40,250 nt of DNA from Longimicrobiales bacterium (GTDB lineage Bacteria; Gemmatimonadota; Gemmatimonadetes; Longimicrobiales; Gaopeijiaceae). The stretch covers positions 1-40,250 of the forward strand of contig CBDCKN010000007.1 of the NCBI GenBank assembly GCA_965218295.1, written 5' to 3'. Positions 1 to 20,694 of this stretch are shown here, in pieces (position 1 is the stretch's first letter; each line of letters opens with the position of its first letter). The notes below the pieces were generated by a model. It worked only from the letters and a program-made list of their open reading frames with translations, made no database searches and was not told where the DNA came from. A program made the position numbers and the translations under genes.

Positions 1-380
1 CCGGTGCCGTTGCCGATGCTTTCACACTCTTTGAGAAGCTCGAGGAGAAGCTGGAGCGCTTTCCGGCCAACCTGACGAGGGCGGTAGTGGAACTCGCCAA
101 GGACTGGCGGATGGATCGTTACCTTCGGAGGCTAGACGCGCTTCTCCTCGTAGCAGACTCGAGCCACCTCTTCCTCGTAAGCGGGGAGGGCGAGGTCATC
201 GAGCCCGACGACGGACTTTTGGCCATCGGGTCGGGAGGCTCGTACGCCCTGGCCGCGGCGCGAGCGCTGATGGCTCACTCCGATCTATCGGCGGCTGAAA
301 CGGTGCGCAGGGCCCTGGAGATCGCTGGGGAGATCTGCATCTACACGAACCTGGAAGTCACGGTTCTGGAGCTGGGCTAG
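1..380 (+). CDS. hslV: ATP-dependent protease peptidase subunit HslV (5' truncated by window edge)
   Basis: Frame from nt 3 reads [14 protein letters not shown]...[18 protein letters not shown]...[16 protein letters not shown]...ICIYTN, typical HslV; directly upstream of hslU. Confidence 0.96.
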
Positions 381-544
381 TGTCCCGTTGCCAAAGTGTC
401 TCGGCCAGTCGAGGGCACGGTGCATCCGTGGGCTCGGCGTTGGGACTCCTTACCGTAGCTTGCGCTACGCCGCGTCGTCCCGCCTTGATCCCACGGCGCC
501 CCGACCCTCTTGGTGGCTCGCGAACTTCGGCAACGGAACACTAG
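377..544. mobile_element. 168-bp palindromic MITE-like element, full copy 1
   Basis: CTAG at both ends; 21-bp terminal inverted repeats ctagtgtcccgttgccaaagt / acttcggcaacggaacactag (2 mismatches); 162/168 identical to 5558-5725; no transposase. Confidence 0.9.
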
Positions 545-3435: not shown

Positions 3436-3936
3436 ATGCGGGTGGCGATCCTGACGGTGAGCGACGGCTGCTTCCGGGGCGAGCGGGAGGACCGGAGCGG
3501 CGATGTCATCGCCGAGTGGTGTGCCCGCCTCGACTACGAGCTGGCAGACCGTGTCGTCGTCCCCGACGAGAGCCAGGAGATCGTCCCCCGACTCGTGGGA
3601 TGGGCGGACTCCGGAGAGGTGGATGTGGTGCTGACAACCGGCGGCACCGGGTTCTCGCCCCGGGACGTGACCCCGGAGGCGACTCGGAGCGTGCTCGACA
3701 AAGAGGCGCCGGGCCTGGCGGAGGCCATGCGGCGTAAGGGTCTCCCCGAGACACCTAGCGCGGTGCTTTCCCGGGGGCTCGCGGGCTCGCGGGGCACGAC
3801 CTTCGTAGCGAACCTCCCTGGGAGTCCCGGGGGTGTTCGGGACGGGCTCGAAGTCCTGGAGGGGCTCCTGCCGCACGTGTTGGACCTCCTCCGGGGCGAG
3901 ACGGCGCACCATCCTCGATCGGCGAGCCAAGCATGA
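3436..3936 (+). CDS. MogA/MoaB family molybdenum cofactor biosynthesis protein
   Basis: [10 protein letters not shown]...[36 protein letters not shown] motifs. Confidence 0.92.
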
Positions 3937-5561
3937 GCGGCGATACCGAAGGCAGGGTGCTCGTCTCCACGCACGACCTGGAACGGGCCGGGGCACTTCG
4001 GACGGCCCTCCAGGGCGCCGGATATACGGTGGAGCTCGTCACCGCCGGTGAGGACGTGAGCGGCGACATGCCTATCCAGCTCTTGGTGATCACCGCCCAG
4101 GCGGACTCGCCGTCTGCCCATGACCTGCGTAACCAGGCGGGTGTCGCCTCCCAAGCACCCGCCTTCGCCATCGCAGACGATCCAGAGGCCGTGCCCCGCC
4201 TTTCGGTCGATTACTCCGAAGTCTTCACCCCGGGCACCCGTCCCGACGAGGTGGTGTTCGTGGCCCGCTCGCTGATCGAGCGCCGGCGTCTGCAGGCCAT
4301 GGCGGGCATCGTGGGCGAGACGGATGCCATCAAGGAGGCGTTGGAGCGAGTTGTCCAGTTCGCTCCCGTGAGCTCCACCGTCCTCGTCACGGGAGAGTCA
4401 GGCACGGGGAAGGAGCTCATCGCCCGAGGCATTCATCACCTCTCGCCCAGAAGGCACAGGCCCTTCATCGCCGTCAACGTGGCCGCCCTGGCCGAGACGC
4501 TGCTGGAAAGTGAGCTCTTCGGGCACGAGAAGGGCGCCTTCACCGGCGCTATCGACTCCAGGCGGGGTCTCTTCGAGCTTGCAGACAGAGGGACCATCTT
4601 CCTGGACGAGATCGGCGAGATGCCCCGGGCCACGCAGACCAAGCTCCTTCGCGTGCTTGAGCAGAAGGAGTTCCATCGGGTCGGTGGGGAAGCCGTGATC
4701 CGTGTCGACGTCCGCATCGTCGCTGCCACGAACCAGGATCTGAAGCAGTTGGTGGCCGTGGGCCAGTTCAGGCAGGACCTCTTCTACCGGTTGAACGTGC
4801 TCCACATCGAGCTCCCGCCGCTCCGCCACCGCCGAGAAGATATCCCCCTCCTGGTGGAGGCTTTCATCGAAGATGCAAGCGCCCGCCACGACCGGACGTT
4901 CGAGGGGATCTCGCCGGAGGCCATGAAGATCCTCCAGGAGCATTATTGGCCCGGCAACATTCGGGAGCTACACAACCTCGTCGAGAGCATGGTGGTTCTG
5001 GCTCCGGGTCGTGAGGTGCTGCCCAAAGACATTCCCAGGGAAGTTCAGGGCCTGGAGAAGGGCGTGGGTGCGCTGGTCCCGGTCGGGTCGGGGAGCGGCC
5101 AGCCCGGCGAGGCCGTCACCGGTCCGGGGCTCCGACCCGAGCTGGAGTTCATTTTCCGGACCCTCGTGGACCTTCGTATGGACGTGGACGACCTGAGGCA
5201 GGAGTTCGACGTCTATCGGGACGGGAGTGCGGCCATTCAGGCTTACCCGGTGGGCACCGAGAGGGTGGAGATCGGGGTGCGGCGTCGGGGGACGACGGTA
5301 GGGGACACGTGGGCAGTGGAGGAAGAGGTAGATCCGTTCCGGCCCGTCGAGGTGTCCTATGGGGCCGATCCCGTGGAGGTGGAGCAGCCGGGTACGGTCA
5401 TCTACCGCTCGGGGATGACCATGGAGGACCTGGAGCGCGAGGCTATCGCCGCAGCGCTGGCCGAGGTGCGAGGAAACCGTCGCAAGGCAGCGCAGCTACT
5501 CGCCATCGGCGAGCGCACGCTATACCGCAAGATCAAGAAATTCGGGCTCGACGAGGACTAG
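3933..5561 (+). CDS. Sigma-54-dependent transcriptional activator (bEBP; degenerate receiver-like N-terminus, AAA+, Fis-type HTH)
   Basis: [51 protein letters not shown]-terminal [26 protein letters not shown]. Confidence 0.95.
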
Positions 5562-5725
5562 AGTCCCGTTTCCGAAGTGTCTCGGCCAGTCGAGGGCACG
5601 GTGCATCCGTGGGCTCGGCGTTGGAACTCCTTACCGTAGCTTGCGTTACGCCGCGTCGTCCCGCCTTGATCCCACGGCGCCCCGACCCTCTTGGTGGCTC
5701 GCGAACTTCGGAAACGGAACACTAG
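5558..5725. mobile_element. 168-bp palindromic MITE-like element, full copy 2
   Basis: Same length and 162/168 identity to 377-544; each terminal CTAG supplies the stop codon of one of two convergent genes. Confidence 0.9.
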
Positions 5726-6348
5726 AGCGGACTTCCGATGCGGCCGCGAACGCGCGCCCGCTCCAGCTCGAGCCGCGTCACGATGCCCTCCCAGGACGTG
5801 TCCCTGGCGCCCTCGTACTCCACCGTCAACGTGATCTCTAGATCGATGGCCGGGTTGAAGGCATAGACCGCCATCTGGATTTCTTCTTGTCGGAGGCGCT
5901 GCTCGCCCCATCCGGGAGTGATGGCGCGGATGGCCTCGGGCCGGTAGCGGAGCCCGCCGTTCACAATGTGCAGGCTCTCCGGCTCGTAGCGCACCGTCGG
6001 GTCGCGGGTGAAGAACGAGACGAGGAAGAGGGAGGAGTCGGCGCCGGCCTGGGACCGGAGGACCGGGCGGCTCGACCGGGCTAGCCCCGCCAGTCTCTCG
6101 TAGGTGTCGGGAGCGGCAAGACGGATCACGGACTCCGCCAGGGGAGTCACCTTCACGCGCAACGCTCCACTCTCGAGCGTGAGGGTGAACTCGTCCTGGA
6201 TCATCGTCCCGTAGCCCGCGGGCACCAGGACCCGCTCGCTCGCGGGGCCGGCAGGCTGCCCAGCGCTCGCCGCAGTGCCCACTCCACCGCAGGCTGTGAT
6301 AGCAGCCAGGGTCAGCATCAGAGCGTAAGTGGGGAGTCGGGTCCTCAT
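5722..6348 (-). CDS. Hypothetical protein, probable lipoprotein
   Basis: MRTRLPTYALMLTLAAITAC-GG signal peptide with lipobox-like ITAC; start overlaps the engB stop (ATGA). Confidence 0.7.
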   Translation of the reverse strand: MRTRLPTYALMLTLAAITACGGVGTAASAGQPAGPASERVLVPAGYGTMIQDEFTLTLESGALRVKVTPLAESVIRLAAPDTYERLAGLARSSRPVLRSQAGADSSLFLVSFFTRDPTVRYEPESLHIVNGGLRYRPEAIRAITPGWGEQRLRQEEIQMAVYAFNPAIDLEITLTVEYEGARDTSWEGIVTRLELERARVRGRIGSPL

Positions 6349-14649: not shown

Positions 14650-14708
14650 CTAGTGTCCCGTTACCAAAGTGTCTCGTCCTGTCGAGGGCACGGTGCATCC
14701 GTGGGCTC
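14650..14708. mobile_element. MITE-like element, left-half copy (consensus positions 1-59)
   Basis: 56/59 identical to 377-435, starts with CTAG, then diverges abruptly. Confidence 0.88.
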
Positions 14709-14752
14709 CTTCTACACTTTCTCGGACGCGAAGCCGGTCGGCCACGGTTGCA

Positions 14753-14845
14753 CGGCCGGGGAGGGTCGGCACCCCCGGAGGCGCCGCTGCGCTACTGCCG
14801 CTTCGCGGCAGACGCGCCTCCGTGCGTACCGACCCTCCCCGGCCG
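14753..14845. repeat. Nested GC-rich palindrome (second structured element)
   Basis: Perfect 17-bp arms cggccggggagggtcgg (14753-14769) / ccgaccctccccggccg (14829-14845); inner ggaggcgc/gcgcctcc and ctgccgc-ttc-gcggcag stems. Confidence 0.8.
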
Positions 14846-14924
14846 ACTCCCCCGAGGCTTTTTCGAAGCGAAGGAACGCAGGTCGGTCTCACCACGCCTA
14901 CCTGAGATGTGAGCCGTCGGCGGT

Positions 14925-14950
14925 CACGACGGTTCAAGCTGACCGTCGTG
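14925..14950. terminator. Hairpin downstream of dnaK (possible terminator or stabiliser)
   Basis: cacgacggt-N8-accgtcgtg about 30 nt past the dnaK stop; no clear U-tract. Confidence 0.4.
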
Positions 14951-14979
14951 CCATTCGCTCGCCTAGCACCCCGCGATTC

Positions 14980-16896
14980 CTATCCTTCGTCGACGATCTC
15001 GTAGTCGGCCTCGACTACCTCTTCCTCCGCCTCGGCGCTCTCGGCCTCGGTCGCGTCGCCCTCGCCTTCATCGTCGGGCTGGGCTTCGGCGGCCTGGGAC
15101 TGGTACATCTCCTGCCCGGCGACGCTGAAGGCCTGCATCAGCTCGTCCCGGGCCGAGTTGAACGTCGCTGCGTCGTCGCCCTTGAGGGCTTCCTTGCCGG
15201 CTTCCACGGCCTGATCGAGCCGCTCTTTCGTGCCCTCGGAGACCTGATCGCCCCACTCCTCGGAGTCCTTCTCCACCTGGTAGACCAGGGAGTCGAGCTG
15301 GTTGCGGGCCTCGACCGTCCCTCGCCGCTCCTCGTCTTCGTCCGCGTGCGCCTCGGCGTCCTTCATCATCTTGTCGATTTCAGTGTCGCTGAGTCCGCTG
15401 GACGCTTCGATGCGGATCTTCTGCTCCTTGCCCGTGGCGTGGTCCTTGGCCGAAACGTGAAGGATTCCGTTCGCGTCGATGTCGAAGGTGACCTCCACCT
15501 GGGGCATGCCCCGAGGAGCCGGCGGAATGCCGGTGAGCTGGAACTTGCCGATGGTCTTGTTGTCGACGGCCATCTTGCGCTCGCCCTGGAGCACATGGAT
15601 CTCCACGGTGGTCTGATTGTCCTCCGCCGTGGAGAAGATCTCGGCCTTCTCGGTAGGGATGGTCGTGTTCCGGCTGATCAGAGGGGTCATGACGCCGCCG
15701 AGCGTCTCGATCCCCAGTGACAGCGGCGTCACGTCCAGCAGCAGCACGTCCGTCACGTCGCCGGCCAGAACGCCTCCCTGGATGGAGGCTCCCACGCCCA
15801 CGACCTCGTCGGGGTTTACGCCCCTGTGGGGGTCCTTCCCGAAGAACTCGGTGACGATTTCCTGGATCTTCGGGATCCGGGTAGAGCCACCCACCAAGAT
15901 GATCTCGTCGATCTCGGACGGGTCGAGCCCTGCATCCTCGAGAGCCTGTTTCATGGGCGGGATGGTGCGCTCGACGAGATCGTCCACGAGCTGCTCCAGC
16001 TTGGCCCGGGTCAGCGCGTAGTTCAGGTGCTTGGGGCCCTCCTGTGTGGCCGTGATGAACGGGAGGTTGATGTCGGTCTGGTGCGTCGAGGAGAGCTCCA
16101 TCTTGGCCTTCTCGGACGCCTCCTTGAGGCGCTGGAGAGCCATGGCGTCCTTGGAGAGGTCGATCCCCTGGTCCTTCTTGAACTCGGCGACGAGCCAGTT
16201 GATGATCTTCTGGTCGAAGTCGTCACCACCCAGGTGGGTGTCACCGTTGGTGGACTTCACCTCGAAGACGCCGTCCCCCAACTCGAGGACGGAGATGTCG
16301 TACGTCCCGCCTCCGAGATCGAACACGGCGATCTTCTCGTCGCCCTTCTTGTCCAGCCCGTACGCCAGAGCGGCGGCGGTGGGCTCGTTGATGATGCGAA
16401 GTACGTCTAGGCCGGCGATCTTCCCGGCGTCCTTCGTGGCCTGCCGCTGGGCGTCATTGAAGTAGGCCGGCACCGTGATCACGGCCTGCTCGACCTTCGT
16501 CCCCAGGTAATCCTCGGCGGTCTGCCTCATCTTCTGCAGGATCATGGCCGAGATCTCGGGGGGTGTGAACGTCTTGTCTGCGTTCGGGACCTTCACCTGA
16601 ACGCGGCCCTTAGCGTCGGTCTCCACGGCATAGGGGACCAGCTTCTGCTCTTCGGTCACCTCGGTGCCCTTGCGGCCCATGAACCGCTTGATGGAGAAGA
16701 TGGTGTTCTCCGGATTGGTGATGGCCTGTCGTCGTGCCACCTGACCTACGAGACGCTCACCATCCTTCGTGAAGGCCACCACGGACGGCGTGGTGCGTCC
16801 ACCCTCCGAGTTGGGAATGACGACGGGCTCGCCCCCCTCCATGACGGCGACTACCGAGTTGGTGGTCCCCAGGTCGATGCCGATTACCTTTCCCAT
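14980..16896 (-). CDS. dnaK: Molecular chaperone DnaK (Hsp70)
   Basis: [67 protein letters not shown] before ATG 16896. Confidence 0.98.
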
Positions 16897-16963
16897 GTCT
16901 GCTCCTTTACGGGCCTGACGAGTATGTGATGGGCCCCAATTTGGGGTCCTCCGTGTATTCTCC

Positions 16964-16979
16964 TGGCACGGCATGTGCA
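16964..16979 (+). promoter_or_regulatory. Sigma-54 -24/-12 motif facing the rhomboid pseudogene and nupC
   Basis: TGGCACGGCATGTGCA versus consensus TGGCACG-N4-TTGCW; GG-N10-GC spacing exact. Confidence 0.6.
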
Positions 16980-16991
16980 ATGATCATGCCC
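16976..16991 (-). promoter_or_regulatory. Sigma-54 -24/-12 motif facing dnaK
   Basis: Minus strand GGGCATGATCATTGCA; GG-N10-GC spacing exact; about 80 nt upstream of the dnaK ATG. Confidence 0.65.
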
Positions 16992-17010
16992 AGTGCGAGG
17001 CTCAAAAAGC

Positions 17011-17053
17011 CGCCAAACTGGCGCCTTTCCGGCAGTATCCTGCCAAAATGGCA
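17011..17053. promoter_or_regulatory. Paired palindromic sites (candidate activator binding sites)
   Basis: CGCCA-AAC-TGGCG (17011-17023) and TGCCA-AAA-TGGCA (17041-17053), 30 bp apart. Confidence 0.55.
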
Positions 17054-17069
17054 TATTGCGGAGGAGCTC

Positions 17070-17270
17070 GTGTTTCCCATCTACGACGACAACCCCACGG
17101 AGATCTTCCCGATCTTCACCCTGGGCCTCATCGCTGCCACGGTCTTCGTCTGAGTCTACGTGCAGGGAGCGGGGTTGTCTCCGGGATCCCTCGACGCCTC
17201 GATCTGCGCGTTGGGGATGATCCCGGGTTCCTGTGGATCTTCGGGAACAACGTGGAGGACTCCATGGCAC
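17070..17270 (+). pseudogene. Rhomboid-family intramembrane serine protease remnant
   Basis: RBS GGAGGAG; GTG-FPIYDDNPTEIFPIFTLGLIAATVFV-stop(TGA 17151)-VYVQGAGLSPGSLDASICALGMIP; then frame-shifted FLWIFGNNVEDSM (17228-17266), a conserved rhomboid motif; catalytic half absent. Confidence 0.8.
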
Positions 17271-17277
17271 CCGGCTG

Positions 17278-17358
17278 GCTACGCCGCGTCGCCCCGCCTT
17301 GATCCCACGGCGCCCCGACCCTCTTGGTGGCTCGCGAACTTTGGCAACGGAACACTGG
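17278..17358. mobile_element. MITE-like element, right-half copy (consensus positions 88-168)
   Basis: 78/81 identical to 464-544; terminal CTAG changed to CTGG. Confidence 0.88.
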
Positions 17359-20654: not shown

Positions 20655-20694
20655 CTAGTGTGGTGTCCAAGAAGTTCGCGAGCCACCGAGAGAG
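20655..20694 (-). repeat. Truncated MITE right end (subtype B terminal repeat), reverse orientation
   Basis: 31/40 identical to the reverse complement of 505-544, including an exact 17-mer gaagttcgcgagccacc; starts at CTAG. Confidence 0.75.

Follow-up and report, generated by a model that had tools for sequence, protein, structure and literature searches.

The window, the whole 40,250-nucleotide stretch analysed here, lies on contig C7 of a 3.57-Mb genome (G000; 65% GC, 17 contigs, 90.7% complete), which was compared with the genomes of two congeners, G001 and G002. It opens with hslV (3-380), followed in the gap before hslU by a short element with terminal inverted repeats. A second full copy lies between the gene of a sigma-54-type regulator (3933-5561) and a convergent minus-strand gene (5722-6348), and partial copies lie further downstream. 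The features are as follows:

377-544, plus strand: full subfamily-A copy 1, read as C-TA, the 162-bp element (380-541) and TA-G, in the hslV/hslU gap; the site is empty in G002 and in run X5.
378-380, plus strand: hslV stop codon TAG, made of the duplicated TA and the element's first G; the empty allele has the identical stop.
380-397, plus strand: left 18-bp terminal inverted repeat of copy 1, IS630-class.
438-485, minus strand: conserved central core of copy 1; minus is the strand predicted to fold, and tandem G-A mismatches lie beneath a 6-bp apical stem.
524-541, minus strand: right 18-bp terminal inverted repeat of copy 1, 16/18 identical to the left repeat.
5558-5725, plus strand: full subfamily-A copy 2, each end of which supplies the stop codon of one of two convergent genes.
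14650-14708, plus strand: left half, lineage-specific (absent in G001 and G002), lacking the right half and about 11 flanking bases, which were deleted.
17278-17358, plus strand: right half, predating the split from G001 and G002; its end carries an additional full copy in G001.
20655-20694, minus strand: subfamily-B end, what remains of a B copy that inserted at an A remnant and was later deleted.

The sequence-only reading had described two full copies, 162/168 identical, whose terminal CTAG serves as the stop of the neighbouring gene. Both points were reproduced: hslV ends on the TAG at 378-380 and the regulator on that at 5559-5561, while the CTAG at the right of copy 2 contains the end of the minus-strand gene. 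The two halves are likewise real (56/59 and 78/81 matching positions). So is the inverted end at 20655-20694, although it belongs to subfamily B and not to A (36/38 positions against a B end, 30/38 against copy 1). The unit had been taken to be 168 bp long and bounded by CTAG; the traces lie where they were placed, but what is duplicated is TA, and the element itself measures 162 bp (380-541). It had also been stated that no coding sequence is broken; the right half does adjoin a broken gene, but the damage is not due to the element. This remnant (17075-17270), which we take from our own reading of its G002 orthologue to be rhomboid-protease-like, carries a premature stop and deletions of about 144 and 430 bp, and is intact in G002. 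The longest frame within the element is 55 codons, and no transposase is encoded. Copy 1 matched elsewhere in the genome with BLAST E-values as low as 1e-81, its reversed sequence gave no matches, and its predicted RNA fold has a z-score of -6.1. At the copy 2 locus G001 and G002 have only remnant-like spacers of 19-37 bp.

Several other observations concern the window itself. An inverted repeat with 38-bp arms downstream of dnaK (14753-14845) occurs once in the genome and is absent from G001 and mostly from G002. The two halves flanking dnaK (from 14650 to 17358) might have been the ends of a composite transposon, but this was ruled out because the right half is common to G001 and G002 and the left half is not. 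Directly after copy 1, positions 545-549 read TGTCC, resembling the element's left end, where both congeners have AGGCC; this may be a remnant of, or a conversion from, an earlier copy.

BLAST combined with an end search of the whole genome yielded 140 merged traces (13.9 kb, 39 per Mb) on all 17 contigs, bearing out the high copy number predicted from the window. They comprise 201 ends, with 69 copies retaining both. Measured from TA to TA, subfamily A copies are 166, 184 or 91 bp long, while subfamily B, which has a different end, occurs as 165, 210, 277 or 304 bp. The 19 A copies of 166 bp are mutually distinct, each 1-10 changes off the majority sequence. A third end class (AGGCCTGTTGAAGAAGT type) accounts for 10 ends (C3:343834, C3:345627, C8:2166, C10:51264 and others) that accompany fragments of the same core and cassettes, and chimeras of this class with A or B bodies were found in the G001 hslU copy and at locus L262. 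The genome also holds several high-copy insertion sequences, such as one of 1,231 bp that has a 385-aa frame and about 19 copies.

Outside this genome the family is patchily distributed. Copy 1 was matched in 13 of 61 related genomes, its own included, and the core pattern is present in 12 of 301 genomes of the phylum. The same body occurs in genomes labelled Longimicrobiales (L118) and Gemmatimonadales (L144). Among 36 genomes with IS630-type ends one contains the exact core pattern, and a covariance model of the body found matches in four of 35 other genomes. The exact pattern had no match in viral contigs, nor did the element in plasmids. A search of Rfam returned no family: copy 1 hit MIR918 alone (E 1.1), and 16 diverse loci gave no matches. 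We found no description of the element family or its core in the full-text literature, where two 15-nt core strings occurred in none of the texts searched; the supplements of a large MITE census (PMC11602168) may list such sequences.

The flanks of the paired copies establish what is duplicated on insertion. The inner base next to TA is G in 195/200 ends and the outer base is C in 149/200, and the inferred target is CTAG in 28/59 cases compared with 4.5% of genomic N-TA-N. Left and right 4-mers are equal in 27 of the 69 paired copies, a level matched by shuffles (26.9), and among the 42 that have a non-CTAG end no copy shows matching 4-mers; TA is thus duplicated, leaving an element proper of 162 bp. 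Of the two behaviours initially considered, TA duplication as in IS630 therefore holds, whereas an IS5-type duplication of the CTAG tetramer is rejected for subfamilies A and B. Empty sites, also anticipated, were found by comparison with G002, of which 1.52 Mb of about 4.8 Mb was covered. Both flanks could be placed for 23/69 G000 copies and 19/28 G002 copies; 11 sites showed a 2-base gap, which was TA in 10, giving ten clean single-TA empty sites, and the rest were filled in both genomes or carried small deletions. Run X5 contains a 2,020-base contig that differs at 9 of 1,159 aligned bases and skips exactly 164 bases at hslV. Because this contig is near-identical and lacks the copy, the hslV site is polymorphic within the species. 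Empty alleles could be precise losses instead of pre-insertion states; at hslV a 9-base repeat makes precise loss plausible.

The placement at stop codons extends well beyond the window. With gene calls from our own codon-usage script, an end fell on a stop codon in 45/69 paired copies; the corresponding share among the remaining CTAGs of short intergenic gaps was 282/841 (odds ratio 3.7, p = 3e-7). Only 3/201 ends lay inside a called gene. All ten clean empty sites already have, on one side or both, an open frame that stops at the TA (the longer frame spans 57-761 codons). Since every end starts with G, landing in the TA of TAG or TAA leaves a TAG stop, and because TA plus this first G reads TAG the protein is unchanged. 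The excess at stop codons probably means, for the most part, that harmless insertions survive, and not that the element seeks out such sites. Relative to transcription the copies showed no bias in orientation (23:16 at stops, 24:21 in co-directional gaps). Convergent gene pairs harbour 19/69 copies, compared with about 15% of gene pairs; a similar enrichment is reported for RUP and IS elements in the relevant passages of PMC3049150.

We then considered which transposase could move the element. No IS630, IS1182 or Y1 transposase scored above cut-off in the 90.7% complete G000 assembly, and none of its multi-copy long repeats, as delimited by BLAST, starts with ends matching the element. IS630 is present in 28/121 genomes of the same bacterial family, from which loci were chosen by protein HMM; selection by end pattern was set aside as circular. 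Among the 30 IS630 loci returned, 18 carry paired ends of the TAGT type, some of them repeats of one element. Each of these 18 lies in the context C-TA...TA-G, and 13 use the last TA as stop. The nearest ends among these loci differ at 1/20 positions from the B end (L405) and at 3/20 from the A end (L389), and both congeners carry IS630 with ends 4-7 of 20 positions away. No IS630 with exactly matching ends was found in any genome searched. The transposase search proposed at the outset gave ends within 1-3 mismatches in the same bacterial family, no IS630 above cut-off in this genome and no exact partner. The end frames noted earlier, RTSATEH and DTLATGH before a stop, were confirmed, and IS630 transposases bounded by this class of end finish in RTLDTGH, RTSETGH or ETLATLH, in most cases right at the terminal TA(G).

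Copy number, empty sites and IS630 ends thus agree with the initial proposal of a non-autonomous MITE linked to IS630, and its movement in trans is what these sequence comparisons suggest: the G000 element is likely a MITE mobilised in trans by IS630. An IS630-family transposase would recognise the 18-bp ends and cut and paste the element in trans at C-TA-G. The two subfamilies, the exchange of variants at fixed sites and the one-strand fold of the interior go beyond that initial proposal. IS630 reportedly prefers CTAG, to go by the title of a 1991 study by Tenzen and Ohtsubo. The behaviour of these IS630 ends also agrees with ISY100, as far as the published account was consulted (PMC2170065). 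The interiors are another matter: 37 of them gave no BLAST match at E <= 0.01 to 13 IS630 loci, so the element is not a plain deletion derivative of those 13.

Orthologous sites suggest that the element is remodelled after insertion. One site can hold different variants in different genomes, 166 versus 91 bp (in both directions) or, at hslU, 166 versus 184 bp. The longer forms carry small cassettes that replace 4-6 bases and are better folded on the minus strand, many with GNA-type loops, which are very stable in DNA; short variants probably arose by in-place deletion within the hairpin. Two new CTAG-like targets remain after every insertion and attract further elements, as several MITE ends show: a half copy in G001 is occupied by a full copy, a B copy in G011 by an IS630, and the hslU copy of G001 by an IS1182. 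In the last genome hslV and hslU lie 194 kb apart (C1:2140041-2140420 and 2332540-2334261; L027 and L022), and IS1182, with about 45 copies of that type there, adjoins each break point; one of these copies sits on the left CTAG of the MITE.

The interior was analysed in a wider sample. A core-pattern scan of metagenomes returned at least 121 loci (86 distinct rows), 43 with clear TA-bounded ends; 37 of these 43, among the matches listed, are 162-167 bp long. The alignment comprised 37 non-redundant elements, all of the 162-167 bp class, derived from 38 by dropping L238, whose ends are doubtful, and by exchanging L232 for copy 1. Two-sided changes occurred at 36 of 50 pairs and 93% of cells pair, a result reached in 0/500 shuffles, although these 37 elements are related, not independent, which inflates the counts, and hairpin covariation can come from arm-to-arm repair without function. 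Mismatches between the arms, counted outside the ends and the searched core, are strongly one-sided: 288 read G-A, G-T, G-G or A-A on the minus strand and 62 the opposite, a skew found in 36/37 elements. The minus strand is predicted to be more stable in 37/37 elements as DNA and in 36/37 as RNA. Left arms are 59% identical at the median, and length nevertheless stays at 162-167 bp. Unpaired core bases are conserved beyond the positions of the search pattern and recur in another phylum.

This recurrence comes with different ends. In G380, a genome labelled Acidobacteria, the covariance model found 44 body matches, mostly 164 bp long with CAGCCCGTGG (CAGCCC-type) ends. Flanking 4-mers are equal in 11/24 copies there, compared with 4.4 in shuffles, and in 4/17 non-CTAG pairs; the G380 family has another class of end, and it likely duplicates 4 bases. 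A search of IS1182 for a parent of this family gave no element with such ends among the loci returned. CAGCCC-ended elements of 220-360 bp also occur in G334 and G122 (L460-L484), carrying two hairpin arms or an AT-rich insert made from the same core and cassettes, and the core is found within further ends (CAGTACTGCG...; TAAATCCC..., 140 bp) at L438 (G380:C74) and at L356 and L368.

Orientation relative to replication was inferred from local GC skew alone. In G000 the top strand of the element is the G-rich strand in 82/127 traces (p = 0.001) and 31/37 full copies (about 4e-5); in the fetched part of G002 the corresponding values, 32/63 and 14/21, are not significant. The G-rich strand is, as a rule, the lagging-strand template. 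If it is so here, the better-folding strand lies mostly off that template, as would be expected if folding at the fork made copies more prone to loss or movement. Replication-linked loss or movement of folded copies may therefore be considered, with one genome in support and one weak.

As a whole, these results are probably best explained by a TA-duplicating, CTAG-preferring MITE, likely moved in trans by IS630. Less surely, the interior would be a separate, fold-constrained body rather than an IS630 leftover; one of its strands would act in single-stranded form, probably where DNA is replicated at the fork, and it could be fitted with the ends of other transposase classes. A bolder version, which we put forward tentatively, makes the folded body and not the ends the true selfish unit. 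It would be a single-stranded DNA hairpin of fixed length that contains tandem G-A mismatches and is recognised, or copied, at the fork during replication. It would take its ends from whatever CTAG-targeting transposase is present, IS630 in this genome and a class duplicating 4 bp in an Acidobacterium, and exchange small hairpin cassettes in situ. It is also possible, though on the unlikely side, that this is an ordinary IS630 MITE whose interior has no role, its hairpin and covariation being products of arm-to-arm repair and descent and its end swaps products of recombination between nested elements. The sections consulted of PMC2170065 report that 30 bp of each ISY100 end are enough in vitro, chimeric mixed-end copies do exist (the G001 hslU copy and L262), and the G002 traces taken together have no replication bias (32:31). 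Yet repair would erase mismatches and not keep them one-sided (288:62), and a role-free interior sits poorly with a length held at 162-167 bp over such divergent left arms and with unpaired core bases conserved across phyla.

The location of copies at gene 3' ends, with more between convergent genes, and the better minus-strand fold as RNA would also suit a fold that acts as RNA, stabilising or terminating upstream mRNA and hence kept at gene ends; MITE transcripts are reported to affect mRNA stability in parts of PMC2229807 and PMC3733652. We regard this as improbable, because transcription orientation is unbiased even though one strand folds much better, copy 1 has neither an internal terminator-like site nor an Rfam match, and sites are polymorphic even within the species. 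A single-stranded element of the REP/REPIN kind, moved by an HUH (RAYT/IS200-type) enzyme and with incidental IS630-like ends, would account for the one-strand fold and for the small internal hairpin cassettes with GNA-type loops, and REP termini often provide TAG stops according to passages of PMC3733652; nevertheless, the TA duplication and the 18-bp IS630-class ends, together with the lack of a Y1_Tnp domain in all five genomes searched for it (G000, G001, G002, G034 and G005), make it very unlikely. The chances are slimmest for movement of subfamilies A and B by an IS5/IS1182-type enzyme duplicating CTAG. CTAG-flanked IS1182 elements are numerous in G001 and occur in G002 and G122 too, one sits on the element's end at hslU, and MITEPsy1 duplicates CTAG or YTAA in the portion of PMC3189936 consulted, but the 4-bp duplication is missing from all 42 informative copies, the IS1182 ends observed (GAGTCTGCG..., GAGGCCGTG...) are unlike those of the element, and this assembly has no IS1182 above cut-off.

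Among known systems the closest is RUP of Streptococcus pneumoniae with IS630-Spn1, which, in the excerpts consulted of PMC2229807 and PMC3049150, is likewise short, gene-less and present in about 100 or more copies, with a TA target, IS630-like ends, a tight fold and enrichment between convergent genes. By those same descriptions RUP is 107 bp long and is set apart from the present element, which is 162 bp, GC-rich, CTAG-preferring, positioned on stop codons and modular in size and, unlike RUP as described there, has an interior common to several lineages and end classes. IS630/ISY100 elements share the TA duplication, the imperfect ends of about 18-24 bp and the CTAG context (PMC2170065, in part), but the present element has no transposase and its interior is unmatched in the 13 IS630 loci. 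The Correia/NEMIS, ERIC and YPAL MITEs resemble it in their long stem-loop, size variants by internal block and gene-adjacent placement; in the same parts of PMC2229807 most such MITEs are A+T-rich and YPAL is without TA ends, unlike this GC-rich, TA-ended element. MITEPsy1 of Pseudomonas syringae inserts at CTAG or YTAA and has 18-nt ends, but it duplicates 4 bases and is IS5-linked, whereas A and B duplicate TA, so that the CAGCCC-ended G380 relatives are nearer to it here (PMC3189936, as far as consulted).

In its working, the folded body also resembles something of another kind. Integron attC sites are imperfect hairpins of conserved structure and loose sequence, with one favoured strand and an orientation tied to replication. 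The resemblance is in working only: the element has no integrase or cassette array, and it has terminal inverted repeats, TA duplication and dispersed copies.

By most comparisons, then, the element behaves like a RUP-type MITE mobilised by IS630, though none of the IS630s tested gave rise to it by deletion. It belongs to a familiar kind of selfish DNA, with one exception, the near-fixed-length interior with a predicted one-strand fold that is common to elements with unrelated ends. Taken as an ordinary MITE, it is a new family that reshapes gene ends, varies between strains and seeds insertion-sequence hot spots, one of which has left hslV and hslU 194 kb apart in a congener. The general view is that cut-and-paste transposases require ends only, and the route by which MITEs reach high copy number is unsettled. 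The interior offers a small, defined substrate with which to ask if MITEs amplify or survive because of a single-stranded fold; if the folded body is indeed the selfish unit, it would reveal an undescribed single-strand step in the amplification or persistence of MITEs in at least two phyla.
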